A stretch of DNA of 16,417 bases from Promethearchaeota archaeon (GCA_048940445.1 JBHLON010000051.1:1-16417); one strand, 5' to 3'. Shown: positions 1-15,874, counted from the stretch's first letter. Numbers and translations: made by a program. Notes: a model not told the origin generated them from the sequence alone.

Positions 1-146
1 TTTTTAAGTACAAATGTCTTTTCTATTAAAACCCCTCCAAAGTCAAAAATGAAATGTTTAATCTTATACAATCTAACCTTCTGTTTCTTAATGATTTTAG
101 TGTCATCGAAATCCTCTAATTTCTCTGAATTTTTCTTTTCAATCAA
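1..146 (-). CDS. HAD-superfamily phosphatase (HAD-IA, YihX-like D-x-G-G-V-L variant), N-terminal part only; runs off the window edge
   Basis: Not in the ORF track. Manual translation from TTG at 146 gives MIEKKNSEKLEDFDDTKIIKKQKVRLYKIKHFIFDFGGVLIEKTFVLK with no stop. IKHFIFDFGGVL is HAD motif I, with the nucleophile Asp codon at 44..42. The start is uncertain: ATG 176, TTG 146 and TTG 71 are all in frame. Confidence 0.82.
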   Translation of the reverse strand, partial: MIEKKNSEKLEDFDDTKIIKKQKVRLYKIKHFIFDFGGVLIEKTFVLK

Positions 147-150
147 ATTT

Positions 151-936
151 TTAGTCTCGGCTCTCACTAATTTCATAACTTTCAATAATCATATCGCATA
201 TTTTCGATACTGGATCATAATTTCCATGCCAATTGGAGAATTCAGGAAATGTACCGGGGTCTACAACATATAGCTTATTAGATGAAGATTCTCGTATCAT
301 ATCTAAATGTCCAAATAAAAGGTTATGTTTATCCTTCCATTTGAAGATTATTTCTTCAATATCATTAGGAGTTTCAATTACCTCAACGGGAGCATGTTCA
401 TTTACCATTGGCTTTTTCTTACAGACGCATATCTCATTATCAATAAAATATACTAAGTAATGTGTACCAAGTATATATTTTTCGAGATAAAATACTTTTA
501 GTTGATTCTCTTCAAGATCGCTTATTTTTTTAATCAATTTAACGTCTTTACTTCCTGATCCAACAATCTGTTTTGAGACTAATGGAAATAAACCATTCAA
601 ATTTGTTTTTAACGTTTCAAATGTTCCTAAAAATATATGAGGAATATTAAAATCTAGTTCTTCTAATAAAAAGGAAGCTTCCACTCTATTCTTACATTTA
701 TATGATATCTCCGTATTGGGGACTACAAGTACGTTATTCGCTTCTAAGAAGTATCCGGCGTATAGAAATATTAATTGTTTGGATTTTAGAATAAAAAAAT
801 CATGTTTAAGTAGAGAGTCGTCAATACGTAATCTCTCTTTAGTATATACTTTTACTTTAAAACCTTTCTTTTCATAATAATTTTTCATTTTTGCTGTTAA
901 ATGGGTTGTCCGTTTTGAAAGTATTCCAATTCTCAA
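151..936 (-). CDS. ATP-grasp domain protein (RimK/ITPK1-like), degenerate active-site motif
   Basis: 261 aa, TTG start, AGGAG RBS. ATP-grasp layout: CKNR, FPLVSKQIVGSGSKDV, YLEKYI, FGHLDMIRE...LYVVDPGTFPEF. The D-x-N motif reads D-P-G. Confidence 0.8.
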   Translation of the reverse strand: MRIGILSKRTTHLTAKMKNYYEKKGFKVKVYTKERLRIDDSLLKHDFFILKSKQLIFLYAGYFLEANNVLVVPNTEISYKCKNRVEASFLLEELDFNIPHIFLGTFETLKTNLNGLFPLVSKQIVGSGSKDVKLIKKISDLEENQLKVFYLEKYILGTHYLVYFIDNEICVCKKKPMVNEHAPVEVIETPNDIEEIIFKWKDKHNLLFGHLDMIRESSSNKLYVVDPGTFPEFSNWHGNYDPVSKICDMIIESYEISESRD

Positions 937-943
937 ATATATA

Positions 944-950
944 CACTCCT
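944..950 (-). promoter_or_regulatory. Shine-Dalgarno-like RBS (AGGAGTG) overlapping the upstream TAG stop
   Basis: The minus strand reads TAGGAGTGTATATATTTG. TAG ends 949..1767 and the final TTG starts 151..936. Confidence 0.7.
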
Positions 951-1767
951 ATTTTCTAGCTTGTTCTATTAAGAAATTAGTTACTTTTTCAAATCCATTA
1001 CTGATATAATTAAAATTAGGCGTTGAATTAACATCAGTTACATAGAATTTTCCTTCTTTAGATTTTAAAAAATCTACTGATGTAATGCTTAAATCAAGTA
1101 TTTCTTGGATTAATTTTACTTTTTCTTCTAATTCTAAGATAGGAGGGATTTCTTGCCTTGTTTTCATTTTGTTTGGGTTAATCAATACAGGTATTTGCTT
1201 ATAGAAGTACAAGGCATCCCCAATACCATAAACCTTATATTCCCATTTACTTTTAATAAATTTTTGATAATAAAAAAATTGATAGTTTTCAGGACCATCG
1301 AAAGCCTCAGTTAAAGCCCGTTCGTCAATGATTTTAAGATGTCCTTCTTTTTTTTCTATGTTCGCATTAAAGGCATAATTTTTTTGATCGATGACATTTT
1401 TGATAATGTAATCTTCAAAAGGAGGTGGCATTCCAACAGGTAATATAGCATGATCGGGAATATCGATTCCTGCCTTAGCTAATAACATACCACTTAAAAA
1501 TCTATGGGATGTTAACATAATTCCTTTTGATGAATTTATAATGGGGATTGACGTTTCGTGTTCAATTAATTTTCCTAAATTTAATATTAGATCTCCTTTT
1601 CCTTTAACAAAAAAAATATCTTCTTTAAAATCTTTAATTGAAAAATCTAAAAGGAAAGATTCTTCTAAATAAATAGAAATCTTAGTAAATCTTTTCAAAT
1701 ACTTCAAAAATTCACTTACTTTATTTTCTAAGTGATATTTGTCAAGAATTAACCCAACTTTAATCAA
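949..1767 (-). CDS. ATP-grasp protein, ITPK1-like inositol phosphate kinase candidate (RimK-like fold)
   Basis: 272 aa, TTG start, AAGGT upstream. Motifs IPIINS, YYQKFIKSKWEYKVYGIG and ITSVDFLKSKEGKFYVTDVNSTPNF (D...D-x-N). Confidence 0.78.
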   Translation of the reverse strand: MIKVGLILDKYHLENKVSEFLKYLKRFTKISIYLEESFLLDFSIKDFKEDIFFVKGKGDLILNLGKLIEHETSIPIINSSKGIMLTSHRFLSGMLLAKAGIDIPDHAILPVGMPPPFEDYIIKNVIDQKNYAFNANIEKKEGHLKIIDERALTEAFDGPENYQFFYYQKFIKSKWEYKVYGIGDALYFYKQIPVLINPNKMKTRQEIPPILELEEKVKLIQEILDLSITSVDFLKSKEGKFYVTDVNSTPNFNYISNGFEKVTNFLIEQARK

Positions 1768-1922
1768 TTATTTTACCTTATTGATATTTTTTCTAAGAAA
1801 AATCGATATGTTTATTTTCAAAAATAATAAATTATTTTAATATAAATAAGTCTTAAAGAATAATAAACTTAGGTTCCAAATGAGACCTACGAATAGTTAA
1901 GTTGCTATTTAAAATCAATATA

Positions 1923-1930
1923 TTTATATA
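1923..1930 (+). promoter_or_regulatory. Candidate archaeal TATA box (TTTATATA) for 1973..2887, in a divergent intergenic region
   Basis: Consensus-like TATA box with an A-rich upstream stretch, about 45 bp before the ATG. The AT-rich background lowers specificity. Confidence 0.4.
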
Positions 1931-1972
1931 ATATAATTTGCTTTAATGAAATTGAATTAATAGGTTTTTGAA

Positions 1973-2887
1973 ATGGCTAATAATGTTAAAAGGATTTATA
2001 TTGGAGCCATTTGTAATAGAGATCTCGAGGTTTTGGAAAGAATAAAGAAATTTTTATTAAAAAACTATAATGTCCTTATTGTTGAACTATTAAAAAAAGG
2101 GACTAATTCATTTGATAATAAGTACTTTTTAAAGCAGTTAAAAAAATATCCTATCTCCTTCTTAATGCTGAAATTGACTACCCAAAATTCTAACAAAAAA
2201 ATTTATGAAGCAATTGAGCAAGTATGTCCTAATATTCCAATTTTAAATAGCTTAAATTCTGTTCAAGTTTGCGAAAGTCGTAAAGAAACATTTAAAATGA
2301 TTAGTCAAAAGTGTAAAAAAGTGAAGATACCAATTACTTACTTTTCATTGAAAGAAGCTTTAAGAGCATGTCAATCTGGAACTAAAGTAATTGTCAAACT
2401 TGATGCTCATAATATCCCAAATTTTCCAAAAAATGATAGAATAATAGGAATTGCCAATTATGTAAGCGAACTTAATGAAATAATCAAAAATTATGATGAG
2501 AGAGATCTATTCTTTCAAGAATACTTAGGAGAATTTGATATTATTTATAAAGTATATGTGATTGGACGATGGATGGTTTCAATTACCTCTCATAATAGAT
2601 TACACAATCCTAATAATTTATCTCCTTTAGAGTTAATTCATATTAGGATACCAGTTGAGAAACAATTAAAAAGTAGAATAAAAAGATTGGGTCGGAAATT
2701 TGGAATGACTATTTTCGGGCTAGATTATATTTTAACAGAAGATGGACCTTGTATTATAGATGTAAACGATTTTCCAAGCTTTAGAAGCATTCCTGAAGGA
2801 ATTAGCTTAATTTCGGATTACATTTACAATATCATATCTTTACGAGAGCAGTATTCCCAAATGCGAATTACGGCTAAAGCAAAATAA
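1973..2887 (+). CDS. ATP-grasp protein, ITPK1-like inositol phosphate kinase candidate
   Basis: 304 aa. FFQEYLGEFDIIYKVYVIG and FGMTIFGLDYILTEDGPCIIDVNDFPSF match the ITPK1 pattern Q-x-F/Y...YKV(F/Y)VxG and FGxD...ID(I/V)NxFP. Convergent with the MIPS gene, 14 bp apart. Confidence 0.82.
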   Translation: MANNVKRIYIGAICNRDLEVLERIKKFLLKNYNVLIVELLKKGTNSFDNKYFLKQLKKYPISFLMLKLTTQNSNKKIYEAIEQVCPNIPILNSLNSVQVCESRKETFKMISQKCKKVKIPITYFSLKEALRACQSGTKVIVKLDAHNIPNFPKNDRIIGIANYVSELNEIIKNYDERDLFFQEYLGEFDIIYKVYVIGRWMVSITSHNRLHNPNNLSPLELIHIRIPVEKQLKSRIKRLGRKFGMTIFGLDYILTEDGPCIIDVNDFPSFRSIPEGISLISDYIYNIISLREQYSQMRITAKAK

Positions 2888-2901
2888 GCTTGAGATATTG
2901 A

Positions 2902-3993
2902 TCATTTTTCTCGCTTATTTTGTAAAAATTCCAGTAATCTTTCTTTCGCAATATAATCCTCCAATTGTTCAGGAGGATGTTTAGCAAAAAATGAACACGC
3001 TGAATGTAAAACACCCCCTATATTTCTATCTTTAGCTATCTTACTTACACGTATACAATCCGTAAGCACACCTGCAGAATTGTTTCCATCCTCTACAAAC
3101 AGAGTGATGTCCATTCTAACAGGAGCTCCTCCAAAAACGCGGCCCTCAAGTCTAATATACGCTTCTTTCTGGTTTTTTAAGAAGGGAATATAATCAACAG
3201 CAGAAATTTGACAATCTATAGTATCTCTATTCTGTAAATTAGCTACAACAGATTCTGTTTTAGATTGTCTCTTTCCTTCTTCATATCTTAGAGTTCCATT
3301 TTTCATAGGAGTTAATAAATTACAAAAATCGCTGGAGCCTCCCCAATCAAGTTGTATTGTTCTATCTAAAATCGCACCTCTCATTGGAAATAGATTAGCA
3401 AGTGATCTATGCACAATTGTTGCTCCTATTTGTGATTTTACATCATCTCCTATTAGTGAAAGCCTTAATCTTTCAGCTTTAGCAATTATCTCTGAATCCT
3501 TGACTACATGGGATGGCATTCCATTAACAACACAGGTTCCAGCATCAAGAGCAGCAATAGCATAATATTTTACTGCTTTATGACTTCCGGTAGGAAGTAA
3601 TATGACTACAACATCAACATTCCTATCTTTTAATTCTTTTACAATATCAACAGAAATTTGATTATCATCTATAGGAATGATATTTTTTATATTGCTATCT
3701 AAACCATCCATGACAGGACCTTTAACTACTGGTGCATTTAAGAAAGGTGGCTTAAAAAGGATCATATTACAATTAGGTTCTGAAAAAATCGCTTCACTTA
3801 AATCTTTCCCAACTTTTTTTGAATTTACATCTATCCCCAATACAAAATTTATATCATTAATACTATATTGAGTAATTTCTGTCAAGATTCCTATAATTTT
3901 GTCGGGATTTTGTTTGTAATTTTCGACACCTTGTACTAAAGCTGAAGCAACATCTCCTACTCCAATAATAGCAACGTTGATTTTTTCCGCCAT
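2902..3993 (-). CDS. ino1: myo-inositol-1-phosphate synthase (inositol-3-phosphate synthase), prokaryotic type, divergent
   Basis: 363 aa. Rossmann motif VAIIGVGDVASALVQG, then LPTGS, GDDVKSQIGATIVHR, GKRQSKT, DYIPFL..QK.AY, EDGNNSAGV and FFAKHPP; all are recognisable MIPS blocks. Confidence 0.92.
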   Translation of the reverse strand: MAEKINVAIIGVGDVASALVQGVENYKQNPDKIIGILTEITQYSINDINFVLGIDVNSKKVGKDLSEAIFSEPNCNMILFKPPFLNAPVVKGPVMDGLDSNIKNIIPIDDNQISVDIVKELKDRNVDVVVILLPTGSHKAVKYYAIAALDAGTCVVNGMPSHVVKDSEIIAKAERLRLSLIGDDVKSQIGATIVHRSLANLFPMRGAILDRTIQLDWGGSSDFCNLLTPMKNGTLRYEEGKRQSKTESVVANLQNRDTIDCQISAVDYIPFLKNQKEAYIRLEGRVFGGAPVRMDITLFVEDGNNSAGVLTDCIRVSKIAKDRNIGGVLHSACSFFAKHPPEQLEDYIAKERLLEFLQNKREK

Positions 3994-4018
3994 AATATTT
4001 TCTATAATAAAGGGATTG

Positions 4019-4028
4019 TATTTAAATA
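4019..4028 (-). promoter_or_regulatory. Candidate TATA box (palindromic TATTTAAATA) for ino1; spacing fits a leaderless or near-leaderless transcript
   Basis: TTTAAATA on the minus strand ends about 26 bp upstream of the ATG at 3993, and no SD sequence is visible. Confidence 0.5.
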
Positions 4029-4062
4029 ATTTTAAAATATAAAAAAGCTTTAATATTGATTT

Positions 4063-4078
4063 ATTATTTGCAAATAAT
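4063..4078. promoter_or_regulatory. Perfect 16-bp palindrome ATTATTTGCAAATAAT, candidate operator
   Basis: Read directly from the sequence. It lies between the divergent ino1 and glycosidase genes. Its function is inferred. Confidence 0.4.
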
Positions 4079-4106
4079 CTAGAAATGAATTATCAAAATT
4101 AAAATT

Positions 4107-6548
4107 GTGGTGGCTTTCATAGAATTGAATTTAATTGACTTATATTTAACTTTTTTAATTATAACCTTTATAATTCTATTTCTTTTAACAGTATATTTGA
4201 TTTTACCTTGGATATTCAAAATTTTTGTATCTCCAAGATTTAATGCTACCTATGTCTATAACTCAAAGGATTTTAAAAAGAAAGAAAAATTAGAAGGCTA
4301 TCCAAGTAAACAGGATATTTTTCAAGTAGATTTTGATAATAATCTCGGAGGCTATTCAATTTCATTTGGAACTACAACAAAATTTTCATATGGAGATATA
4401 ATCATTAGACATAAACATCAAGAATATAATATTTATAAAACTAAATCGAAATCTCTTCAGTTAAATTCAAAGAATGAAAAAGAAGGAAATGATAAGTTAG
4501 GTTCATTTAAATTAATAATTGCTGAATTTAAATCGGAGGATAAGGAACTATATTTCAGTATAGCGATAAAGAATTATCTCCGAGAGAATTTTATTATTTT
4601 TGAGCTGAATCTTCCTGAAGGGCTAAAAGCTACTTCATATGGTAAAAAATCAAAATTTATTACTTCCTACCCCTCATTTCTAAATATAAGTTCTCATACA
4701 AAAATATTTAGTTATCGTAATACCAAATTCTGTCCTCCTTCAAGAAAACTTAATACTACATCAGCACCTGTTTTACTATATGATGACTCTCTGAACTGCT
4801 TTACATTGTCTCCATTAGATGGTTTCTTAAACACATTGATTTCAAAAGATAAAGATAATAGAATAAATTGCGGTATCCAAGGAAAGATTAAAGAGTTACC
4901 AAGTGGTTTTTCACAAAAATTTATTCTTCTTTTTAGTAAAGGAATAAATCACTCTTTAGAGCGTTTAGGAGAAATTTTACTAAAATATCATGATTCTAAT
5001 CGTAAAGACCTTTATGCTAATGTAGTTACATCTTATTTAGGATTTTGGACAGATAATGGAGGCTATTATTACTATAACACAGAGAAAGGAATGAACTATG
5101 AAGAAACAATGTTATCAATTAAACAGTACTTTGAAGAAGATGCTATACCCATCATGTATTACAATTTTGATAGTTGGTGGTATTTAAAACATACAAATAA
5201 AATTTTAACGACTTTATTAAGACCAATTGTCCGATTGCAGGGAGGAGGATTATTTGGTAATACTTTACGTTGGGAAGTGGATCCAAAAAATTTTACGACT
5301 AATTTAAAAACATTTCAAAAAAAATTTCAAAGACCAATTACGGCTCATAATCGTCGTTGGGATTCTCGCTCTCCCTATGTAGATAAATTTCAATTCGAAA
5401 CTTATAAAAATCATGCTGTGCCACTGAATAGAGATTTCTGGCAATGGCTAATGGCTTATGCCAAAGAAAGCGGCATTGTTGTTTATGAACAAGATTGGAT
5501 TAAAAATCAAATTGCAAGTATACCAATATTAAAACAATATATTAATGCTCAACAGGATTGGTTGGACAATATGGCGTTTGCTGCTAAAGAGAAGGGAATT
5601 GATGTATTTTATAGCATGCAAACTCCTGGTGTCTTACTATACAGTATAAAACATTCAAATGTTAATATTTCCCGATGTTCGGAGGATTACAATCATAGGT
5701 GGCCTTTAACTTATAGATATGTTCACTCCACTCAAACGAATATACTTTTTAATGCTATTGGTATTAATTCTCATCCAGATGTTTTCCGTTCAAGAACAAT
5801 AGAAAATAATTTTCTGAAACTTTTCGGAGAAAAGTATCCAAATTTTAATTGTCTCTACCAAATCTTGAATGCTGGGGTTGTTGCACCCGGAGATAAAAAA
5901 GAAAATGTAAATTGGGATCTTCTGAAAAAAACATGCAGGAGTGATGGTTTATTACTGAAACCAGATAAACCTTTAACTGTTAATGATTTGATGTTTAAGA
6001 AACATAAGAAATACTATATTTGTGATACTTTTACCAGGATAAATAATTTAACTTGGAAATATATTTTAATTTCCAATCTATGGCCTCGAAGAGTTAAAGA
6101 AACTTTTTTCACATTAGCAGACCTAGGCTTTGAAAAAGATGATTATATTGTCTATGATTATTTTTCTGATATTATCACTCGAGTTAAGTTAGATGAAAAG
6201 ATTGAAATAGGACATTTAAAAAAATATGACTATAAATATTATATAGTGTGTCCTATTGTTAAAAATGGAATGGCTTTAATTGGCTGTCCTGACAAGTTCA
6301 TTACTTGTTCAAGAAAATTGGTTAAATTTTTCAATGCAAATGATAAATCCATTAACTTTCTAGTGGAAAACACACAAAATACTAGTATTAAACTTTTAAT
6401 TTATTCAGAAAAAAAGCCTACTTCAATTCAAGTTGATAAGGAATTAACTAATTTATGGAATTATGATGAGGAACTAAATAAAATAGAAATATACCTTTGG
6501 TTCGATACTAAAACTAAAAAAGAAGTTATAATCAAAAATAATATTTAA
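4107..6548 (+). CDS. Membrane-anchored putative glycoside hydrolase/transglycosylase, clan GH-D-like (GH36/raffinose synthase-like TIM barrel)
   Basis: 813 aa, GTG start, N-terminal hydrophobic helix. Motifs YLGFWTDNGGYYYY, FDSWW (D355), YEQDW (D463, nucleophile-like), SRCSEDY (D527, acid/base-like) and GD...WDLLKKTCRSDGLLLKPDKP resemble clan GH-D strand motifs. Confidence 0.6.
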   Translation: MVAFIELNLIDLYLTFLIITFIILFLLTVYLILPWIFKIFVSPRFNATYVYNSKDFKKKEKLEGYPSKQDIFQVDFDNNLGGYSISFGTTTKFSYGDIIIRHKHQEYNIYKTKSKSLQLNSKNEKEGNDKLGSFKLIIAEFKSEDKELYFSIAIKNYLRENFIIFELNLPEGLKATSYGKKSKFITSYPSFLNISSHTKIFSYRNTKFCPPSRKLNTTSAPVLLYDDSLNCFTLSPLDGFLNTLISKDKDNRINCGIQGKIKELPSGFSQKFILLFSKGINHSLERLGEILLKYHDSNRKDLYANVVTSYLGFWTDNGGYYYYNTEKGMNYEETMLSIKQYFEEDAIPIMYYNFDSWWYLKHTNKILTTLLRPIVRLQGGGLFGNTLRWEVDPKNFTTNLKTFQKKFQRPITAHNRRWDSRSPYVDKFQFETYKNHAVPLNRDFWQWLMAYAKESGIVVYEQDWIKNQIASIPILKQYINAQQDWLDNMAFAAKEKGIDVFYSMQTPGVLLYSIKHSNVNISRCSEDYNHRWPLTYRYVHSTQTNILFNAIGINSHPDVFRSRTIENNFLKLFGEKYPNFNCLYQILNAGVVAPGDKKENVNWDLLKKTCRSDGLLLKPDKPLTVNDLMFKKHKKYYICDTFTRINNLTWKYILISNLWPRRVKETFFTLADLGFEKDDYIVYDYFSDIITRVKLDEKIEIGHLKKYDYKYYIVCPIVKNGMALIGCPDKFITCSRKLVKFFNANDKSINFLVENTQNTSIKLLIYSEKKPTSIQVDKELTNLWNYDEELNKIEIYLWFDTKTKKEVIIKNNI

Positions 6549-6574
6549 GGTCATTTTCTAGCGTAAGAACCTAT

Positions 6575-7900
6575 TTATTTCTTAATTAATGTTTCTTTTA
6601 CTTTTAAGAAAAGCGGTATGGATCCCAAAAAGAATATTGGAGCGAATGTGAAGACAAACGATTCTGGTATGATCCCTACTATTAACATATAGGTAGCAAT
6701 TAAGCCTCCTACAATAGAACCTATTACCTGCGAAACAGTTCTTATAACATTTAACAGTCCAAGAAACTTACCTCTTTCAAATTCAGGTAACAAATCTTGG
6801 GACCACGCATTCATTGGTGTTTCTAAACCCAAAATTCCGATAAGTATAAAAGGAAATAATATAAACAATAACATCAAATTGGTTGATGATCCTATTTTAA
6901 CGAAAGGAATGTAAATCATTGCTATAGATATAATATAAATTACAAGAGGTATATATACTCGGCGACCATGTTTATCGCTAAGTTTGCCCAGTAAAGAAAT
7001 AATAATAAATAGAATAATAAATGAAATAAAAACTAATAAGATCAACTCCATTGTAGTCAATCCTAAAGCAAATATCCATATAAATAAAAAAGGCAGAATT
7101 GTGGATATCCCTGTTCTATATACTGTAAGAGCTAGTACAATTTTGAAGAATTCCCTATTTTCCCTTAATTTTCTCACATTAAAAATTCCCTTAAATTCAG
7201 TAAAAAATTTCTTTTTTGGAGGTAATTCTTCTGATGATTTCTCTTTTATAAGTAAAAATCCTAAAAAACCTGTAATACAAATACTTATTCCTCCTATAGT
7301 TAAAGTAAAGATATGCCCACTTTGTCCAATTACAGTACCACCTGCAGGAGTGTTTACTCCAAAAATCATGTCTGCTACCAGAAAAGAGGCTACAGCGATT
7401 AATAATCCAATATTACCTATAATATTTATAATACCATTTGCTCTCCCTCTTCTTTCTACTTCAACCGTATCTGGAATTAGTGCCCTCTCAGATACATAAT
7501 ACGCATTAGAACTAATTCCAATTACCACAACATCTAAAATGATGCATATTATGTAGGCAATAGTAATGTTTCCGCCAGCAATGTTAATTGAAAAAGCGAA
7601 AAGTATCATTGAAATCCCTGATATGATTCCATAAAGTAAATAAGGACGCCGTCTTCCAAATCTTCCCCTCGTGTTATCACTTTTTATACCCCACATCAAG
7701 TTTGAGATTAATCCCACAACTGCTGATAAACTAACCATTAGAGTAATGAATAAAGGTTTTAGGAATAAAACTTGATTTAAATAGGTATTTAAATAATTTT
7801 GCTCAAAAAAACCAAAGATTGTATCACCTGCTAATAACATACCTATTAAATAAACTTGGTTTCGTAAGAAATCACTAAATACTCTTTCTTTTTTTCTCAT
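6575..7900 (-). CDS. MFS transporter, glycoside-pentoside-hexuronide (GPH/MFS_2)-like
   Basis: 441 aa with about 12 hydrophobic segments. Motif A: GIKSDNTRGRFGRRRPY and LGKLSDKHGRR. Also DTVEVERRGRANG and DLLPEFERGKFLG. Confidence 0.9.
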   Translation of the reverse strand: MRKKERVFSDFLRNQVYLIGMLLAGDTIFGFFEQNYLNTYLNQVLFLKPLFITLMVSLSAVVGLISNLMWGIKSDNTRGRFGRRRPYLLYGIISGISMILFAFSINIAGGNITIAYIICIILDVVVIGISSNAYYVSERALIPDTVEVERRGRANGIINIIGNIGLLIAVASFLVADMIFGVNTPAGGTVIGQSGHIFTLTIGGISICITGFLGFLLIKEKSSEELPPKKKFFTEFKGIFNVRKLRENREFFKIVLALTVYRTGISTILPFLFIWIFALGLTTMELILLVFISFIILFIIISLLGKLSDKHGRRVYIPLVIYIISIAMIYIPFVKIGSSTNLMLLFILFPFILIGILGLETPMNAWSQDLLPEFERGKFLGLLNVIRTVSQVIGSIVGGLIATYMLIVGIIPESFVFTFAPIFFLGSIPLFLKVKETLIKK

Positions 7901-8018
7901 ATTTAATTCGCCGTTAATTATTTAAGGAATAAGTTTTAATTTTATTTTGATTTTATTATTTAAAAGTATATCTTTTTAACTTAAAGCAACATTGAAAGAA
8001 AATGAACATAATTAAGAG

Positions 8019-8918
8019 ATGGCGAAAAAAGTTATATTCTCTGCAAGAGAAGATCATGAAGTAATAAAGCGAGTAATAAGTAAATTAAGTAAATTAAAAG
8101 AGATTCAACTTATTACTCATGATCCTAAAAAGGATTATTTCAACCTCTCAAATATGCCGACTGCATTTAGAGAAGCTGATTTAATAATTGTTAAAGTCAG
8201 AAATGAATGTTCTATTGATCTTCTTCACTTTGCTAAGATAAATAAAATTCCGACACTTCATGATATAGATACCGTTCTAATGTGTAAAAATAAAGTATCC
8301 CTTGATTTTGCCTTGCGAGATGCCCTCCTTAAAAATCCTATTCTTAAGAGGTATTTTTCTTTACCGCATTCTTGGAACCATAATGTATCTAATATATTAA
8401 AATTTAAAGAATGGGCGGCTCCAAGGTTACCCATTGTAATTAAAAGTCATTATCAGCATGACAAATTTAATCGATTTAACTTTTTGGTAAGAGAATTGAA
8501 AGAAATAGATAAATTTTGTGAAAAGTATAAAGATTTCTTGTATTATGATGTATATGTCCAAGAATTTATAGAGAGTGACGGTATTGAAAGGAAAATTTAT
8601 GTTGTGGGTGATAATATTTATGGTATCCAAAGAGAAAATCCCATATATATTTACTTGCGGGAGGATCCCAAAAACATTAATGTTGAAGAAATAGCTAGAC
8701 AAGAATATAAAATAACAGAAAGTGTTAGAAGATTAGCGAAAGTTTTAGCAAAGGAGCTAGGCCTAAGAATTTTTGGTTTTGATCTTGTAAAACCTCTAAA
8801 TAAGCGAAAATATTATTTAATAGATTTAAATGATTTTCCAGGATTTATGGGTATACCACATATAGATGATATAATTGTAGAGTATCTTAAAAATTATATT
8901 TCCAATTTAAATAACTGA
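8019..8918 (+). CDS. ATP-grasp protein, ITPK1-like inositol phosphate kinase (inositol-trisphosphate 5/6-kinase family) candidate
   Basis: 299 aa and the best ITPK1 match: CKNK, LPIVIKS, YVQEFIESDGIERKIYVVGDNIYGIQR, LGLRIFGFDLVK...YYLIDLNDFPGFMGIP. Confidence 0.85.
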   Translation: MAKKVIFSAREDHEVIKRVISKLSKLKEIQLITHDPKKDYFNLSNMPTAFREADLIIVKVRNECSIDLLHFAKINKIPTLHDIDTVLMCKNKVSLDFALRDALLKNPILKRYFSLPHSWNHNVSNILKFKEWAAPRLPIVIKSHYQHDKFNRFNFLVRELKEIDKFCEKYKDFLYYDVYVQEFIESDGIERKIYVVGDNIYGIQRENPIYIYLREDPKNINVEEIARQEYKITESVRRLAKVLAKELGLRIFGFDLVKPLNKRKYYLIDLNDFPGFMGIPHIDDIIVEYLKNYISNLNN

Positions 8919-9030: not shown

Positions 9031-12000
9031 ATGAAAAGAAAATTTTACACAACAGTTCTTATTTTAATATTGTTAATATCTAGCTTCTCGATAAATATAA
9101 GGGACTTTTATTCATCAGAACCTAAAAATTCGCTAAAGTCAGACGAGTTTAAACCAAGAAATACAAAAAATTTATCTGATCATCCTATTAATATACCTTT
9201 CATCTACGGAGTAAGTCGTGGTCCAATTGAACTTGATCCACATAATAGTTGGGATTCTAATTCTTTTGATGTAATTCAACAAGTTTGTGAAGGCTTATAC
9301 GGCTATAATTATTCAGATCCTGAAATGGAAATCATCCCTTATTTAGCAACTGCAGAGGGTGTCTGGTCACCTGATGATCTAAATTATACCATACCATTAA
9401 GAACAGGGGTTACATTCCATGATGGGGCACAATTCAATGCAACAGCAGTTAAATTCTCGTTTGATAGATTAGCATATTTGATGGACTATTCTATGTCTGT
9501 CGTATATAGTTTATATGAAGTGTATGATCCTAATGTCGCCTCTTATAAACGAATTATTAACAGAACTGAAATAGTTGATACTTATACAATTAAATTCATA
9601 TTGAATATGCCTTATGGAGCAATTGATGCTTTATTATGTTTTCCAGCTTCTTATATACTATCACCAAAATCAACCTCTGCAACCACTCTCATAGATACAG
9701 AAACGGGAGATTTAGTAGGAACAGGGCCTTTTGTCTACGATAATTATTCAGTTAATGTGGAGGTTAATTTTCATGCGTATAATAATTATTGGCGGGGAAA
9801 AGCTGTTATTGATCAAATGAAATTTAAAGTTATTGATGACACTAAGGAAAGAGAGTTGGCATTAATTAATGGAGATGTCCATTTCATTTCTAGCCTTGAT
9901 TCTGATTATTATAATGCTTTTAATGCTTTACCATATATTAAGTTCTTGGATACTGGAAAAACAAGCGGTTGGACTTCTTGTCTTGGGATGAACAATAAAC
10001 AGATTAATGTTTTATGGAGAGAAGCTATTTCTTATGCGATTGATTATGATTATATTATCAACGATATTAGAGAAGGGTATGTTGAAAGATTAAAATCACC
10101 TGTCCCAGATGGTATAAGATATGCAAATTCGTCATTTAATTATCCCGTTTTGGATTTACCACATGCTAGGATAATTGTTCAATCGATGGGATATGGTATT
10201 GGATTTGATATATATGATGATGCTGAATGGGAAACTGCCGCAATTAATACTCCTTTTGCAACTTTTAACTATACTTACAATTTAGGTAATAAGATTCGAC
10301 AAGACATATTGTATCTACTTCAGGATAATCTAGGAAAGATTGGAATTAAAGTGACTGATGCTGGTATGACATGGACTGAATATCTCTATAGGTTATATGA
10401 AGTTGGTGATTATAGTAGAAATCAACTTCAACTTTATTGGTTTGGCTGGGTACCAGATTATAATGATCCAAGCAATTTTCTTAATTCCCTATTTACTAAT
10501 CGTACTGTTGCATCTAATGCTGCTCAGGTTAATGATCCCATTGTACAACAATGGATGGAGGACGCTCTTGAAGAAACGGATCAAACCCAAAGAGAAGCAC
10601 TCTATGATAATATTCAAAAACGTCTTGTGGAAGAAGTTTATCCTTGGGTTTGGGCCACAGTCGAGAAATTATATTACGCTTATCATATCAATCTAACGGG
10701 ATTTCAACCAAATGTATTAAGAATAAATTATTTCTATCCGTGTCAATGGAATCCATGGTATATCTCTCCTAGGGTTGATGCAACATTTATAGTTGGTGTG
10801 TTAAGTGGTCCTCATGATATTGACCCACATAATGCTTGGGATAGTATGTCATATCAGGTGATCGATCAAGTCTGTGAGGGATTATATGGATATAATTATT
10901 CAGATCCTGAAATGAAAATCATCCCCTATTTAGCAACTGCAGAGGGTGCTTGGTCACCTGATGGTCTAAATTATACTGTTCAATTAAGATCGGGAGTTAC
11001 ATTCCACGATGGAGCACCGTTTAATGCAACGGCAGTCAAATTCTCTTTTGACAGATTAGGCTATTTAATGGAAAATGATATTGCTATTATAGAAGAACTC
11101 TATTGCTTTAGAGATGGGACCCCAATTATCAATCGAACTGAAGTTATTGATACCTATACTATTAAATTCATATTGAATATGCCTTACGGAGCATTTGATG
11201 CATTATTATGTTTCAGTGGCTCTTATATACTATCGCCAAAATCAACTCCTGGAACAACTCTTATAGATACTGAAACGGGGGATTTGATTGGAACAGGGCC
11301 ATTCGTATATGATGATTATATACCAGATGTGGAAATAAACCTTCATGCTTATGACAATTACTGGAGAGCAAAAGCAGATATTGAAGTAATGAAGTTCAAG
11401 ATTTATGATGATCCTAGTGAGAGAATGGCAGCATTGGTAACTGGAGAGATTGATTTCGTTGATAAATTGCTGCCAGAATGGGTAGATCTCTTAAAAAGGC
11501 TCGCCAATATTACAGTTTTGGATGAAGGTAAAACAAGCACTATGATTAATTATCTTGGGATGAATAACAAACAGATTAATGTGTTATGGAGAGAAGCTAT
11601 TTCTTACGCGATTGATTATGATTATATTATCAACGACATTAGAGAAGGGTATGTTGAAAGATTAAAATCACCTGTCCCAGATGGTATAAGATACGCTAAT
11701 TCAACGTTTAATTATCCTATCTTAGATTTACCACATGCTAGATTAATTGTTCAATCAATGGGATATGGTATTGGATTTGATATATATGATGATGCTGAAT
11801 GGGAAACTGCCGCAATTAATACACCTTTTGCAACTTTTAACTACACCTATAATGTAGGGAGCGAGATTCGAGAAAATATTTTGTATCTACTTCAGGATAA
11901 TCTAGGAAAGATTGGAATTAAAGTGACTGATGCTGGTATGACATGGACTGAATTTATCTATAGATTATTTGATATTGGCGGTTATGGCAGAAACTATCTT

Positions 12001-13578
12001 CAGCTATATTGGTTATCTTGGGTTATGGATTTTAACGATCCAAGCAATATTCTTGATTCGATGTTTTTAGATACATCCACATCTAATTTTGCTCAAGTAA
12101 ATGATGCACAAGTTTCTCAATGGCTGCAAGATGCAATTATTGAGACTGATCCTATTCAGAGGGAAATATTATATGGTAATATTCAAGAACGCCTTGTGGA
12201 AGTGATTTTTCCTTGGGCATGGGGTACGGCTGAAAAACTATACACAGCTTTCCACGAAGATTTAACAGGATTTCAACAAAATACATTAGAACGACTTTAT
12301 TTTTATTCATGCAAGTGGGATAGAAAGCTTCCTGGTACATTCATTTTGAGTTCTGATGCTGGAACTCCAGATGATGACGGGATTTTTAATCTAACATGGT
12401 CAGCATCCGATGGAGCAATTAATTATACTGTATATCAGCATTCTGAATACATAACTGTTGTTAATGAAAATTTAAGTCTATTAGTTGATGGAATTACAGA
12501 TCTAAACCTTTCTTTAAGTGGTTATTCTGATGGAACATATTATTTTATTGTAGTTGCAAATAATGTGTATGGTGAAACACTTTCTAATTGCTATCAAGTT
12601 GATATACTTACTTCCAAATCTCTTTCCATTAATATTCCTGATAATCTTAGTTCATGGGAAACTGGGACACCTCACAACATAAATTGGACATCAACAGGCA
12701 TCATTTCAAACGTAAAAATAGAGTTATATATCGATGATATGTTTGTCATGGAAATTTCCTCCGAAACAAATAATGATGGGGAATATTTGTGGGCGCTCCC
12801 CTTATCTCTTATGAGTTCTACTCTCTATCAAATTAAAATTAGTGATGTATCTGATCCTTCAATATATGATTTTAGCGATTATTTTGAGATTTTTTCGCCC
12901 TCTATTACTATTATTATTCCTGATGATTCAAGTTCTTGGGAAACTGGTACCTCCCACTACATAAACTGGACTTATACAGGTACAATTTCGAATGTGAAGA
13001 TAGAATTATATGAAGATAGCTTATTTGTATTGGAAATTACTTCAGATACCTCTAATGACGGAAAATACTACTGGACAATTCCTACCTTACTTGGAGGCTC
13101 TACTCAATATCAAATTAAAATTAGTGAAGTATCTGATCCCTCTGTTTACGATTATAGCGAATATTTTGAAATATATACTTATGCTATTGTTATTACTGTG
13201 CCTGACAGTTCTAACTCTTGGCAAGCAGGTACATGGCACTATATTTATTGGACTTCACCATTATTGATTTCTAATGTTAGAATCGAACTGTTCAAGGATG
13301 ATACATTTACCATGGAAATCACTTCTGGCACAGTTAATGATGGAGAGTATTACTGGTTGATTCCTACCACACTTGAAGCTTCGTCTCATTATCAAATAAA
13401 AATTACTGATGAATCTAATCCTTCTACCTATGATTTTAGTGAATATTTTGAGATAAGGCAGCCCCCATCAGGAGAATTTCCTTTAGCCTTAATTATAACA
13501 GTTTCAGCTGTTGGTGTTGCTTCAGTTATAGCTTTAGTTACCATATATCTGCTATACAGAAGAAAGCGGAAAATATAA
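9031..13578 (+). CDS. Large cell-surface ABC-type substrate-binding protein: signal peptide, two family-5 (OppA/DppA-like) domains, Ig/FN3-like domain, three Ser/Thr-rich Ig-like repeats, C-terminal TM anchor
   Basis: 1515 aa. Signal MKRKFYTTVLILILLISSF. Two copies each of DPH..WD, PYLA, LR.GVTFHDG..FNATAVKFSFDR, GTGPF, REAISYAIDY and W..D.NDP. C-terminal LALIITVSAVGVASVIALVTIYLLY followed by RRKRKI. Confidence 0.92.
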   Translation: MKRKFYTTVLILILLISSFSINIRDFYSSEPKNSLKSDEFKPRNTKNLSDHPINIPFIYGVSRGPIELDPHNSWDSNSFDVIQQVCEGLYGYNYSDPEMEIIPYLATAEGVWSPDDLNYTIPLRTGVTFHDGAQFNATAVKFSFDRLAYLMDYSMSVVYSLYEVYDPNVASYKRIINRTEIVDTYTIKFILNMPYGAIDALLCFPASYILSPKSTSATTLIDTETGDLVGTGPFVYDNYSVNVEVNFHAYNNYWRGKAVIDQMKFKVIDDTKERELALINGDVHFISSLDSDYYNAFNALPYIKFLDTGKTSGWTSCLGMNNKQINVLWREAISYAIDYDYIINDIREGYVERLKSPVPDGIRYANSSFNYPVLDLPHARIIVQSMGYGIGFDIYDDAEWETAAINTPFATFNYTYNLGNKIRQDILYLLQDNLGKIGIKVTDAGMTWTEYLYRLYEVGDYSRNQLQLYWFGWVPDYNDPSNFLNSLFTNRTVASNAAQVNDPIVQQWMEDALEETDQTQREALYDNIQKRLVEEVYPWVWATVEKLYYAYHINLTGFQPNVLRINYFYPCQWNPWYISPRVDATFIVGVLSGPHDIDPHNAWDSMSYQVIDQVCEGLYGYNYSDPEMKIIPYLATAEGAWSPDGLNYTVQLRSGVTFHDGAPFNATAVKFSFDRLGYLMENDIAIIEELYCFRDGTPIINRTEVIDTYTIKFILNMPYGAFDALLCFSGSYILSPKSTPGTTLIDTETGDLIGTGPFVYDDYIPDVEINLHAYDNYWRAKADIEVMKFKIYDDPSERMAALVTGEIDFVDKLLPEWVDLLKRLANITVLDEGKTSTMINYLGMNNKQINVLWREAISYAIDYDYIINDIREGYVERLKSPVPDGIRYANSTFNYPILDLPHARLIVQSMGYGIGFDIYDDAEWETAAINTPFATFNYTYNVGSEIRENILYLLQDNLGKIGIKVTDAGMTWTEFIYRLFDIGGYGRNYLQLYWLSWVMDFNDPSNILDSMFLDTSTSNFAQVNDAQVSQWLQDAIIETDPIQREILYGNIQERLVEVIFPWAWGTAEKLYTAFHEDLTGFQQNTLERLYFYSCKWDRKLPGTFILSSDAGTPDDDGIFNLTWSASDGAINYTVYQHSEYITVVNENLSLLVDGITDLNLSLSGYSDGTYYFIVVANNVYGETLSNCYQVDILTSKSLSINIPDNLSSWETGTPHNINWTSTGIISNVKIELYIDDMFVMEISSETNNDGEYLWALPLSLMSSTLYQIKISDVSDPSIYDFSDYFEIFSPSITIIIPDDSSSWETGTSHYINWTYTGTISNVKIELYEDSLFVLEITSDTSNDGKYYWTIPTLLGGSTQYQIKISEVSDPSVYDYSEYFEIYTYAIVITVPDSSNSWQAGTWHYIYWTSPLLISNVRIELFKDDTFTMEITSGTVNDGEYYWLIPTTLEASSHYQIKITDESNPSTYDFSEYFEIRQPPSGEFPLALIITVSAVGVASVIALVTIYLLYRRKRKI
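9190..12320 (+). repeat. Intragenic tandem duplication of the solute-binding domain (units about 9190..10750 and 10780..12320)
   Basis: The DNA offset is 1587 bp early (9304 vs 10891) and 1572 bp after a 15-bp indel. Includes a 73-bp exact match, 10309..10381 = 11881..11953. Confidence 0.92.
12619..13464 (+). repeat. Three tandem 282-bp (94-aa) Ig-like repeats, similar to the Ser-Thr-rich GPI-anchored/Kre9-KNH N-terminal family
   Basis: Units start at 12619, 12901 and 13183. Consensus I..PD...SW..GT.H.I.WT....ISNV.IEL......EI.S.T.NDG.Y.W..P..L..S..YQIKI...S.PS.YD.S.YFEI. Confidence 0.88.
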
Positions 13579-13686: not shown

Positions 13687-14541
13687 TTAACCTATTGGAC
13701 TGTAAAATAAAACTGGAAATAGGATTAACCATGCAATAATTCCATAGAAAATACAAAAATATCCAAATTGAAACTTTTTTGAAATTTTAAGAAGTATATT
13801 TATCGTTAAGTAGCCAACGACAAAGCTAATTAATGTTATTAAAATTATAGTAATAGGATCCAAAATTCCAAATACAGATCCCTCCCCAAAAATAACATCC
13901 ATTCCAATGGAAGCTATTATTACTGGAACAGACATTAAAAAGCTAAGTTTCAATGCATTATCTGTTCTGTATTTTTCAGCTAATATTGTTGATACTGTAA
14001 ATCCTGAACGTGAAACACCAGGTAAAATACTTATGCCTTGAATTAAGCCAGATATGAATGAATCTTTTCTTAAATCTTCATTAGAAACGTTTTTAAGATT
14101 TTTATTTCCATAGTTCCTTTTAAATTTGATTAGAATAATCCCAGTTATTATGAGTAACCCTGCTATAATTAATGTAAGAAAATCCCCACTCTTTGCAGAA
14201 AATCCCTCGATTAATACAAATTTGAAGATAAAATAAAGTGGGACTGCAGTAATTGCTGTTGCTAGGGTCGCTATTATTACCCAATTCCTTTTTTTAATGT
14301 CAATTTCTTCTGAATTATATCTTTTTGGAGCTAAAGATTTAAGAATGTTAAAATAATCTTTTCTAAACTTTAAGAGCACGGCAAACATAGTTCCTAAATG
14401 AAGCCATATACTCAAGCTAAAAGCTTCAGTTGGGGTGATATTAAAAAAGTCAGTAGCAACAATTATTACTTGACCTGAAGATGAGATAGGAAGCCATTCA
14501 AATAAACCCTGCAAAATAGCAATAATAATATATTCAATCAT
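13687..14541 (-). CDS. uppP: Undecaprenyl/polyprenyl-diphosphate phosphatase (BacA family)
   Basis: 284-aa polytopic membrane protein with BacA motifs LQGLFEWLPISSSG, LHLGT, QGISILPGVSRSGFT and SFLMSVP. Confidence 0.93.
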   Translation of the reverse strand: MIEYIIIAILQGLFEWLPISSSGQVIIVATDFFNITPTEAFSLSIWLHLGTMFAVLLKFRKDYFNILKSLAPKRYNSEEIDIKKRNWVIIATLATAITAVPLYFIFKFVLIEGFSAKSGDFLTLIIAGLLIITGIILIKFKRNYGNKNLKNVSNEDLRKDSFISGLIQGISILPGVSRSGFTVSTILAEKYRTDNALKLSFLMSVPVIIASIGMDVIFGEGSVFGILDPITIILITLISFVVGYLTINILLKISKKFQFGYFCIFYGIIAWLILFPVLFYSPIG

Positions 14542-15016
14542 AATTTAATTCAAATCTTTCCATTCCTTTTAATAATGCATTTTTGATTTCTTCTCTTGAT
14601 TTTCTAAAACCTTCTAATCCTTTCATTGAAGGATCTTCAATATCTCCTTTTTCTCCTGCAAATTCTTTTAATGTAAAAATGGACTTATTATTATGCCCGA
14701 TGAATGTATTCAATTCTTCCTTATGTTTTTCTGTTAAAGTCAAAATTAAATCCGCTTTTTCTATTAAAGATGGGCATCTTTTTAAATCAATTGATAAAGA
14801 ATCTTTAGGCAAATTAATTCCCACTTCTTTCATTACCAAAATTGCATCCAATGAAATTAACATCCCATCTCTTGCATTTGAGGATATCCCACCAGAATAT
14901 ATATTCACATGTATATTATTTCTAATAAAAATATCTTTCAGAAATCCAACAGTCATTGGACTTCTCGCAGTATTTACACTACAAACTACCAAAATATCTT
15001 TATAGGGAAATTTCAT
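14534..15016 (-). CDS. Low-molecular-weight phosphatase family protein (LMW-PTP / protein-arginine phosphatase-like)
   Basis: 160 aa. N-terminal P-loop VVCSVNTARS (C-X5-R), then ADLILTL and DIEDP. Confidence 0.88.
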   Translation of the reverse strand: MKFPYKDILVVCSVNTARSPMTVGFLKDIFIRNNIHVNIYSGGISSNARDGMLISLDAILVMKEVGINLPKDSLSIDLKRCPSLIEKADLILTLTEKHKEELNTFIGHNNKSIFTLKEFAGEKGDIEDPSMKGLEGFRKSREEIKNALLKGMERFELNYD

Positions 15017-15114
15017 CTTCCTTCTTATAAGTTATTCACGGTTTTCAGAGAAATTAAATAATAGATTATGTAATGAATCATTTTTTTAATATTTTAAAAT
15101 TAATTTAAATAAAA

Positions 15115-15789
15115 TTAGAGGAAGCAATCTTTATTTACAAATTTAATTCCTTTTTCAGGCATTGATTTTAAAGAATTCGCAATATTTCCTGGAGGTAGAT
15201 CGATCCCCTTGGTTAAATCGGCTAAAAGCAATACTTCAAATCCGAAATCAATACCATCCATAGCTGTAAAATAACAACAATAATCTAATGCTAAACCACA
15301 AACAAAAATTCTCTTAATTTTTAATGATTTTAAATAACCCGCTAATCCTGTCTCAGATTTTTTATCATTTTCAATAAATCCAGAATAACTATCAATTTGA
15401 GGGTTGTAACCTTTACGAATTATTGCATGAGCTAAATCTGTTTTTAGATCGCTATGAAATTCTGCTCCTTTTGTCCCTTGCACACAATGGTCGGGCCATA
15501 AAACAGGCCCTATTGCTTCAGTTTGGTAAAGATCTCCTGGTTTTTTTCCCGAGTGGTTGCTTGCAAATGATAAATGTTCTTGAGGATGCCAATCTTGGGT
15601 TAAGACTACCTTGGCATTTTCTTTATTAAATTTCTGGGCTAGTGTATTGATATGATTAATTATTTGATCCCCCTCATTAACTGGTAATGCTCCACCAGGC
15701 ATAAAATCGTATTGCATATCCACAATAATCAAAGCATCATTCTGATGAATCTTAATATTGCTTCTACCTTTTATATCTTTAATATCCAT
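15115..15789 (-). CDS. pncA: Nicotinamidase/pyrazinamidase (isochorismatase family)
   Basis: 224 aa with VDMQYDFMPGGALPV, TQDWHP..H.SFA, LWPDHCVQGT.GAEFH, IRKG, DSYSGF and GLALDYC; the Asp-Lys-Cys triad and metal ligands are present. Confidence 0.95.
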   Translation of the reverse strand: MDIKDIKGRSNIKIHQNDALIIVDMQYDFMPGGALPVNEGDQIINHINTLAQKFNKENAKVVLTQDWHPQEHLSFASNHSGKKPGDLYQTEAIGPVLWPDHCVQGTKGAEFHSDLKTDLAHAIIRKGYNPQIDSYSGFIENDKKSETGLAGYLKSLKIKRIFVCGLALDYCCYFTAMDGIDFGFEVLLLADLTKGIDLPPGNIANSLKSMPEKGIKFVNKDCFL

Positions 15790-15874
15790 TGTTAACTGTA
15801 CTTTGTCTGTTTTATTGAAGTATTATAATAAAAGATTAGATTTATAATTATATTTTTGACTCTGGTTTAAAAGT

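Follow-up and report, generated by a model that had tools for sequence, protein, structure and literature searches.

Whether an archaeal locus can encode the synthesis of soluble inositol polyphosphates, and which of its genes would belong to such a system, is the question raised by the 16.4 kb with which contig C9 of a Promethearchaeota archaeon (GCA_048940445.1, JBHLON010000051.1:1-16417) begins. This stretch of 16,417 nucleotides, hereafter the window, comes from a Loki-type Asgard genome of 3.64 Mb that is 93% complete and has a GC content of ~29%. The original prediction, made from the sequence alone, placed in it a self-contained module for making, removing and transporting inositol phosphates, composed of four ITPK1-like ATP-grasp kinases (here A to D), a myo-inositol-3-phosphate synthase (MIPS), a HAD phosphatase, a GH-D-like open reading frame (here X) and an MFS transporter. 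All eight genes were found where they had been described, the HAD gene with codons 1-58 only. The reading that we favor, and consider probable, is that we are dealing with a further copy, in another genome, of the Lokiarchaeal inositol-phosphate cluster, with MIPS, the kinases C and D, the B/A pair and the HAD hydrolase as its core and with X and the MFS transporter as cargo.

Lokiarchaeum carries four ITPK1 homologues, LcIKA to LcIKD, which in two pairs flank two inositol-3-phosphate synthase (IPS) genes, and plc1-delta yeast regained part of its IP6 with LcIKC (Desfougères et al., 2019, PNAS; PMC6900528). Later papers repeat the link between Asgard archaea and ITPK1. The original prediction had stated correctly that such homologues were already reported in Asgard archaea (PMC6900528), but it underrated this prior art, since the linkage of kinase and MIPS genes was published in 2019 together with the yeast complementation by one Lokiarchaeum homologue. 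The present locus resembles the LcIK/IPS loci in that ITPK1-homologous ATP-grasp genes flank the synthase gene; it differs in the A/B pair, the HAD hydrolase, the variable slot and the wider distribution described below, none of which is in the text of that paper. In the literature open to search, neither the A/B pair nor the HAD hydrolase nor the X family was found to be described.

The synthase and its ITPK1-family neighbors

MIPS (363 aa, 2902..3993, minus strand) scores 75.2 bits against PF01658, for which the cut-off is 27, and is the sole PF01658 match in its genome. The TIGR03450 model aligns over residues 5-356 with 303 bits, below the cut-off of 638 of that equivalog, as expected for a non-actinobacterial protein. 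The gene lies between ATP-grasp C (304 aa, 1973..2887, plus strand) on one side and, beyond X and the MFS gene, ATP-grasp D (299 aa, 8019..8918, plus strand) on the other.

Family profiles were made from 24-27 orthologues of each ATP-grasp type. In profile-profile comparison the four proteins are mutually related (A-B, E 3.6e-11; B-C, 4.4e-8; C-D, 1.5e-19; A-D, 2.9e-7). D is the clearest ITPK1-family member, with 58.2 bits against PF05770 (Ins134_P3_kin; gathering cut-off 23 bits) versus 29.8 bits against RimK, a Pfam family that D alone among the four matches. C reaches 29.1 bits in PF05770, also above the cut-off. All top matches of the D profile in the PDB are ITPK1 (E 4e-9), and the top ten matches of the C profile are all ITPK1 or ITPK4 (E 6e-9 and weaker). 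Neither protein matched PF17927 at E values up to 0.01 in a scan of all Pfam. By these sequence comparisons C and D are ITPK1-family ATP-grasp proteins.

The active-site residues are consistent with this assignment. C has D251...D263-V-N265-D-F-P and Q182-x-Y...K193-V-Y, and D has D255...D269-L-N271-D-F-P and Q181-x-F...K192-I-Y. Both share the ATP-grasp fold, the D...D-x-N-x-F-P motif and the Q-x-F...K-V-Y pattern with eukaryotic ITPK1 (PF05770; 2ODT, 2Q7D, 7TN6, 8OXE, 1Z2N), from which they differ in their low identity and in that only the C-terminal ~120 residues can be aligned in sequence. K199 and R212 of human ITPK1 are among the most conserved contacts to the inositol phosphate (PMC6900528). 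In D, K192 and R205 align with these two residues (2ODT) and are invariant in 24 orthologues. C keeps the lysine (K193) but has a serine where R212 aligns, so that its inositol-phosphate contacts are partial; D263-V-N265-D-F-P, K193 and R156 are invariant across its orthologues. An Arg156 is likewise described in LcIKC (PMC6900528), and this clue, the only one that connects the two, makes C the probable orthologue type of LcIKC. Because D and C directly flank MIPS in many loci, LcIKA-LcIKD would be two C-type and two D-type genes. A mapping of LcIKA-LcIKD onto A to D was attempted and given up; the paper's text has no accession numbers by which to confirm it, and no Lokiarchaeum GC14_75 record is among the best 120 matches of C.

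PF05770 has three matches in the entire 3.64-Mb genome (B, C and D), and all of them lie within the window, which argues that their clustering is not due to chance. No IPK-family kinase (PF03770) was detected in the genome. The InsP5 2-kinase family (PF06090) was also without a match there, a result made uninformative by its failure to match in control genomes. We infer that the cluster is co-regulated; the divergent intergenic regions (B|C, MIPS|X and MFS|D), when searched for a common operator, proved to share only AT-rich 9-10-mers, which are unconvincing in a genome of 29% GC.

The A/B pair and the HAD hydrolase

ATP-grasp A (261 aa, 151..936) and ATP-grasp B (272 aa, 949..1767) are encoded back to back on the minus strand, B always directly upstream of A. 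The original prediction counted both among four ITPK1-like kinases. This held for C and D, which pass the family tests, but not for A and B, which are about as near to LysX/ArgX-type ligases and of which A lacks a metal ligand. B scores 17.2 bits against PF05770, under the cut-off, and A has no Pfam match. The curated NCBIfam ligase models do not reach their cut-offs for either protein: rimK_fam (cut-off 143) scores 21 bits for A, 42 for B (41.7) and 36 for D, and A otherwise shows weak MptN/RimK matches of 21-25 bits. In public annotation the ATP-grasp proteins appear as 'RimK family ligase' or 'hypothetical', as had been anticipated.

The predicted D...D-x-N ligands and Q-x-(F/Y)...K(V/I)Y pattern in three paralogues were confirmed residue by residue for B, C and D; A differs. 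B has D232...D245-V-N247-S-T-P and Q168-x-F...K178-V-Y, a partial version of D-x-N-x-F-P, in which D232...D245-V-N247 and K178 are invariant across orthologues. A has D212...D226-P-G228 instead of D-x-N and L161 instead of the lysine of K-V-Y. G228 is invariant and the asparagine ligand is gone in 26 of 26 A orthologues, two of them labelled Thermoplasmatota. The glycine loop of A, GSGSKGV, is of the classical ligase type, and the E-x-N metal motif of the ligases is present in none of the four proteins. When the R212 position was judged by eye from the K-V/I-Y strand, B was seen to keep K178 and to have K190-Q191 near that position, and A to have L161 with K174 thirteen residues on. The human inositol-phosphate contacts are thus found in D, partially in C and B, and not in A.

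Profile searches of the PDB with A and B both returned ArgX (3VPB) first at E ~1e-6 (1.8e-6 for A), with ITPK1 at only E 0.03 for A and at 0.03-0.12 for the two. On a common scale, the hidden Markov model (HMM) of B gives 32 bits for D, 29 for C, 26 for A and 28.8 for ArgX, and that of A gives 35 bits for B, 20 for D, 9 for C and 30.8 for ArgX. The predicted structure of B (pLDDT 90.5) has ArgX as its closest fold (Z 23.7), followed by LysX/ArgX (22.6), RimK (21.9), PPIP5K2 (20.9) and human ITPK1 (19.5). A and B thus resemble the LysX/ArgX/RimK ligases (3VPB, 5K2M, 3VPD, 4IWX), their best solved relatives in sequence and fold, also in size; they differ from them in the missing E-x-N, in the lack of a nearby gene for a LysW-like carrier and in scores far under the curated cut-offs. 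We tried the fold search as an arbiter between kinase and ligase for B, but LysX/ArgX, RimK, PPIP5K and ITPK1 fall within ~4 Z units and it is not decisive. Neither are the ESM Atlas clusters of A and B, which are RimK/LysX-like yet contain many members that also carry PF05770 matches. Taken together, the Pfam, profile, HMM and fold scores arrange the proteins in a chain of similarity that leads from ITPK1 through C and D to B, then to A, and on to the LysX-like ligases.

The B family is small, with 55 representatives among 1.84 billion proteins at E <=1e-10. PF05770 is matched by 23 of its 48 nearest global representatives and RimK by 17 of the 48. More distant B-like proteins (P0210, P0213, P0214) lie on uninformative contigs of 1-3 kb, which show little more than a second gene of ~250 aa directly after the B-like gene. 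On the metagenome contig of P0213 this second gene has 248 aa, in an arrangement like that of B and A, and an NTP_transferase gene comes before. NTP_transferase is the family of the inositol-1-phosphate cytidylyltransferase.

A and B are adjacent and co-oriented in every locus seen, with a 12-nt gap in the window and a 4-nt overlap in locus L086. Prediction of the A/B complex gave an ipSAE of 0.90 compared with 0.01 for the best control; of 80 solved complexes 58 attain this mark, and of 110 mismatched pairs 2 do. Contacts are at least 96% the same between runs, with a pLDDT of at least 88 for the partner. This modeling supports a predicted A/B heterodimer.

The HAD gene follows A on the same strand (3..176, minus strand), overlapping its end by 26 nt, and was placed by a tblastn search in which residues 1-58 of the L006 orthologue aligned at 84% identity. 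The contig start cuts it after codon 58; the protein has 341 aa in relatives. Residues 34-341 (92% identity) were located on a second contig of this assembly, at the end of C123, and the gene is therefore intact and split by an assembly gap. The L006 orthologue scores 55.4 bits against PF00702 and 41.9 bits against PF13419, both over their cut-offs. Its best NCBIfam models are the YihX-like glucose-1-phosphatase model PRK09456 and TIGR02247 (E 2e-15 and 4e-21), both under the curated cut-offs. The protein thus matches the HAD-IA models of E. coli YihX-type phosphatases (alpha-D-glucose-1-phosphatase) and differs from them in these low scores, in a 38-aa N-terminal extension and in a C-terminal Lys-rich repeat of ~100 aa (KKEYKKAKKEY...), which is kept in 17 orthologues (e.g., L006:3607-4632). 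Motif I reads F-D-F-G-G-V (D45-F-G47-G-V), a DxG in place of DxD, in the window and in 17 of 17 orthologues; we take this to be a feature shared with YihX-type phosphatases. S163, K195 and D219-D220 are invariant, and we assigned them to motifs II-IV. From its sequence the HAD protein is likely a phosphatase.

Conserved core, variable slot and distribution

We compared 80 MIPS-anchored loci from named metagenome-assembled genomes (MAGs) labelled Promethearchaeota, Hodarchaeota, Hermodarchaeota or Thorarchaeota, in which the window proteins were placed by tblastn. MIPS identity is 74-90% for all but three of the loci, and A is 45-70% identical across them. The recurrent order is isochorismatase-LMWPc-BacA-D-[slot]-MIPS-C-B-A-HAD. 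The linkage of MIPS to ITPK1-like ATP-grasp genes that had been claimed is thus tight and conserved, and it extends to the HAD hydrolase. The slot between D and MIPS varies: it is empty or holds X, the MFS gene, SBP_bac_5 proteins, GH2, or a Zn-dependent alcohol dehydrogenase with an unknown protein of 941 aa. By rough counts made by eye, with many loci cut by contig ends, X is present in ~16 and the MFS gene in ~35 of the 80 loci. In two more distant genomes (loci L004 and L005), X is unlinked to MIPS and stands beside unrelated genes. Because the slot turns over, only B, A and HAD count as truly conserved accessory genes, and the idea of a self-contained module that includes the glycosidase and the transporter is not supported.

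In L044 (5907-9791), L024, L077 and L015 the slot contains a Pfam-less protein of 936-945 aa beside a Zn-dependent, glucose-dehydrogenase-like dehydrogenase. The 941-aa protein was considered as a relative of X and proved unrelated by BLASTP. In-frame stops in D of L087 and in HAD of L050 were traced to alignment segments running past the true gene ends, and reflect neither introns nor pseudogenes.

X (813 aa, 4107..6548, plus strand) has no Pfam or NCBIfam match, with Pfam scanned up to E 10. Its predicted structure (pLDDT 91.9, pTM 0.92) shows a transmembrane helix (2-45), an N-terminal beta-sandwich, a TIM barrel and a C-terminal beta-sandwich, an architecture that points to a GH36-like (clan GH-D) glycosidase or transglycosidase tethered to the membrane. 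Among solved structures the closest match is an Arabidopsis alkaline alpha-galactosidase (7exf; Foldseek E 4e-29; VIA Z 27.1 over 619 residues, root-mean-square deviation 3.8), which has been solved with galactinol and raffinose; the next matches, to GH36 and GH27 enzymes, have Z ~21, i.e., ~6 Z units lower. The sole PDB sequence match of the X profile is also the 7exf protein, at a weak E of 0.25, and places R523-C-S-E-D527-Y on RASDD447F. D463 (Y-E-Q-D-W) lies 64 residues upstream of D527, the same spacing as D383-D447 in 7exf, and D463 and D527 are invariant in 45 homologues. The spacing and the invariance suggest that D463 is the counterpart of D383, which we take to be the nucleophile of the plant enzyme because it is mutated in the deposited D383A complexes. 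X therefore shares its three-domain architecture, the R-x-S-x-D acid/base motif and the aspartate 64 residues upstream with plant raffinose-synthase/alkaline alpha-galactosidase GH36 proteins (7EXF-7EXJ, 'galactinol-sucrose galactosyltransferase 6'), from which it is set apart by an identity of 11-12%, the absence of a Pfam match and the N-terminal membrane anchor. On the model, X is probably a catalytically active alpha-glycosidase or transglycosidase of the retaining type. Charges on either side of the anchor hint, weakly, at a catalytic domain that faces the cytoplasm.

X defines a GH36-like family outside Pfam, widespread among Loki-type archaea. Of the 86 homologues found, almost all bear Asgard labels (Promethearchaeota, Hodarchaeota and the like), and others are from bdelloid rotifers. 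These rotifer proteins (P0077-P0082; Adineta, Rotaria) are ~30% identical over half the length and could be due to horizontal transfer into rotifers or to contamination.

The MFS transporter (441 aa, 6575..7900, minus strand) is of GPH/sugar type, with 113.8 bits against MFS_1, 63.1 bits against MFS_2 (cut-off 27) and 57.8 bits against TIGR00792 (GPH), whose cut-off of 231 is not reached. GPH-type carriers move neutral glycosides, not polyanions. X and the MFS protein look like a module for uptake and cleavage of alpha-galactosides or glycosyl-inositols. Since both sit in the variable slot, they are probably outside the inositol-phosphate system, and nothing points to their handling inositol polyphosphates. 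The predicted removal and transport of inositol phosphates by these genes was thus not borne out.

The distribution of the kinases was surveyed by six-frame HMM search in 301 sampled Asgard genomes; these are incomplete MAGs, so that the zeros below mean 'not found' rather than 'absent'. PF05770 matches occur in 61 of the 68 genomes that share their GTDB family with the window, in 1 of the 7 from its sister family and in 0 of 226 from 28 other Asgard families. The B type occurs in 55 of the 68 and in 0 of the 233 genomes of 29 other families. A sister-family genome of 4.4 Mb in a single contig (G210) has no PF05770 match. Within this sample, ITPK1-like genes look all but limited to a single Lokiarchaeal family.

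Three loci from another phylum (L084, L086, L088; L086 is labelled Thermoplasmatota) carry C-, B- and A-like genes beside MIPS at 26-41% identity and in altered order. The C-like protein scores 27.6 bits in PF05770, over the cut-off; there is no D. In L086 a xylose-isomerase-like TIM-barrel gene (AP_endonuc_2) abuts the C-like gene, and a PfkB-family sugar kinase is encoded 4 kb off (L086:6494-7291 and L086:2544-3656). The AP_endonuc_2 Pfam family includes inosose dehydratases and isomerases. Among 301 genomes of the Thermoplasmatota-type phylum, strong B-type matches (E <=1e-95) were found in G301, G302, G303 and G460 and a weaker one in G380 (2e-27), and seven genomes in all have matches at E <=1e-8. 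That the linkage is kept despite divergence and rearrangement suggests that MIPS, C, B and A have a function in common. Transfer between archaea would fit the patchy spread.

The rest of the window contains a 1515-aa protein (9031-13578, plus strand) with two SBP_bac_5 stretches and three Kre9/KNH Ig-like repeats, encoded between D and BacA. In relatives BacA comes directly after D, and a similar gene was seen only in L015; the 1515-aa gene is therefore a lineage-specific insertion. It is followed on the minus strand (13687-16417) by genes for BacA (undecaprenyl-diphosphatase), a low-molecular-weight phosphotyrosine phosphatase, an isochorismatase-family protein and DUF998. These are syntenic with D in nearly all of the 80 Loki-type loci and absent from the Thermoplasmatota-labelled loci. 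A 90-aa open frame at 1-273 (plus strand), antisense to HAD and A and without a family match, was taken as spurious.

Readings of the cluster

In the reading that we prefer, MIPS would convert glucose-6-phosphate into inositol-3-phosphate (Ins3P), and C and D would add further phosphates, giving soluble inositol polyphosphates. B and A, whose genes directly adjoin the HAD gene on the same strand, are proposed to act most likely as a heterodimeric ATP-grasp unit, in which B keeps the complete D...D-x-N site and A would be the catalytically altered partner. This unit would probably work on the same inositol-phosphate pool, by kinase or ligase chemistry. The HAD protein, with its DxG motif I and polylysine tail, would probably remove a phosphate from an intermediate, and X and the GPH-type MFS protein would be a separate, variable sugar or glycoside module inserted between D and MIPS, outside the core. 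What the analysis itself shows is the gene content, family membership, linkage, distribution and folds; the substrates of A/B, of the HAD protein and of X, and the end product, are what we infer from them.

Several observations weigh against this picture. Much of the synteny comes from one GTDB family, and these loci are not independent. The rescue by LcIKC was only partial, in a yeast that supplies its own IPMK and IPK1. A and B score 29-31 bits against ArgX/LysX (Z 23.7), compared with 9-32 bits against C and D and 15-17 bits against ITPK1 (Z 19.5); both are as near to ArgX/LysX, and may have a non-kinase role. LysX- and RimK-type enzymes have been solved as homodimers, and the A/B complex score may come from likeness to these rather than from real binding. 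Moreover, X stands beside MIPS in the ~16 loci of the rough count, and its best structural relative binds galactinol, a galactosyl-inositol, so that a link between X and inositol, e.g., a role in inositol supply, is conceivable.

The alternatives differ mainly in what they make of A and B. These two could be LysX/RimK-type ligases that form an acyl-phosphate and then an amide or ester bond, making an inositol-derived conjugate, solute or head-group precursor from a phosphorylated intermediate supplied by C and D and trimmed by the HAD protein. Such a role, which we regard as unlikely, would suit the ArgX and LysX matches (E ~1e-6; Z 23.7 and 22.6), the GSGSKGV loop of A, a size of 261-272 aa that is that of LysX and not of ITPK1, and a predicted A/B interface region that is presumably that of LysX-type homodimers. 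It is at odds with the absence of E-x-N from A and B, the kinase-like D-x-N of B and the sub-threshold NCBIfam ligase scores; moreover, no LysW-like carrier or amino-acid biosynthesis gene is in the cluster, and no carboxylate substrate is evident in the inositol pathway. At the opposite end, and in our view still less likely, all four ATP-grasp proteins would be inositol-phosphate kinases of differing ring-position specificity that take Ins3P to InsP5 or InsP6, with HAD, X and MFS integral for removal and transport. The mutual homology of the four, the D...D-x-N and K-V/I-Y strand kept in three, the PF05770 matches among the nearest relatives of B (23 of 48, with 17 for RimK) and the failure to find an IPK-family kinase for the other steps speak in its favor. 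So does an N-domain lysine that follows a hydrophobic run in all four, where ArgX has an arginine; it may be the equivalent of K59 of human ITPK1. But A lacks both the asparagine ligand and the lysine equivalent to K199, B stays under the Pfam cut-off, and A and B are structurally nearer to LysX/ArgX. In addition, the carrier is of a type that moves neutral glycosides, X is alpha-galactosidase-like, and both genes are missing from most related loci.

A more far-reaching version of the kinase idea, which we also think improbable, treats the B/A heterodimer as a new ATP-grasp inositol-phosphate kinase or pyrophosphate-forming enzyme. With C, D and HAD it would yield highly phosphorylated inositols without IPMK or IPK1, and the C-B-A-MIPS set would have passed by horizontal transfer between a single family of Lokiarchaea and a few Thermoplasmatota. 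Least credible, and in our judgment very improbable, is that the neighborhood is merely inherited gene order among close relatives, the ATP-grasp proteins and MIPS serving unrelated processes. Most of the 80 loci do come from one GTDB family, and the same synteny extends to BacA, LMWPc and isochorismatase, which nothing obvious ties to the cluster in function. However, the C, B, A and MIPS linkage is kept in another phylum at 26-41% identity and in changed order, the D-MIPS slot turns over while the core stays together, and the published complementation ties a C-type protein to inositol phosphates. The synteny survey called for by the original prediction thus returned conserved linkage in 80 related loci and, for C-B-A-MIPS, beyond the phylum. 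The proposed comparison of Pfam Ins134_P3_kin with RimK scores divided the four proteins, upholding the ITPK1-family assignment for D (58.2 bits) and C (29.1 bits) and not for B (17.2 bits) or A (none).

The linkage of ITPK1 and MIPS genes in Lokiarchaeum is the main argument for a pre-eukaryotic synthesis of soluble inositol polyphosphates. To this argument the present locus brings no new principle, and the survey refines it: two of the four ATP-grasp proteins are ITPK1-like, and the conserved and apparently undescribed B/A pair travels with C/D and an unusual HAD hydrolase. Of residual interest are this pair with its one altered site, the HAD protein, the narrow and patchy spread of the ITPK1-like genes and the Pfam-less GH36-like family. 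The distribution almost wholly in one sampled Asgard family, together with a related set in another archaeal phylum, weakens the reading that the genes were inherited from an Asgard ancestor. If the B/A pair were indeed a new enzyme of inositol phosphates that had been exchanged horizontally, ITPK1 would be a patchily distributed archaeal trait and not an inheritance common to Asgard archaea.

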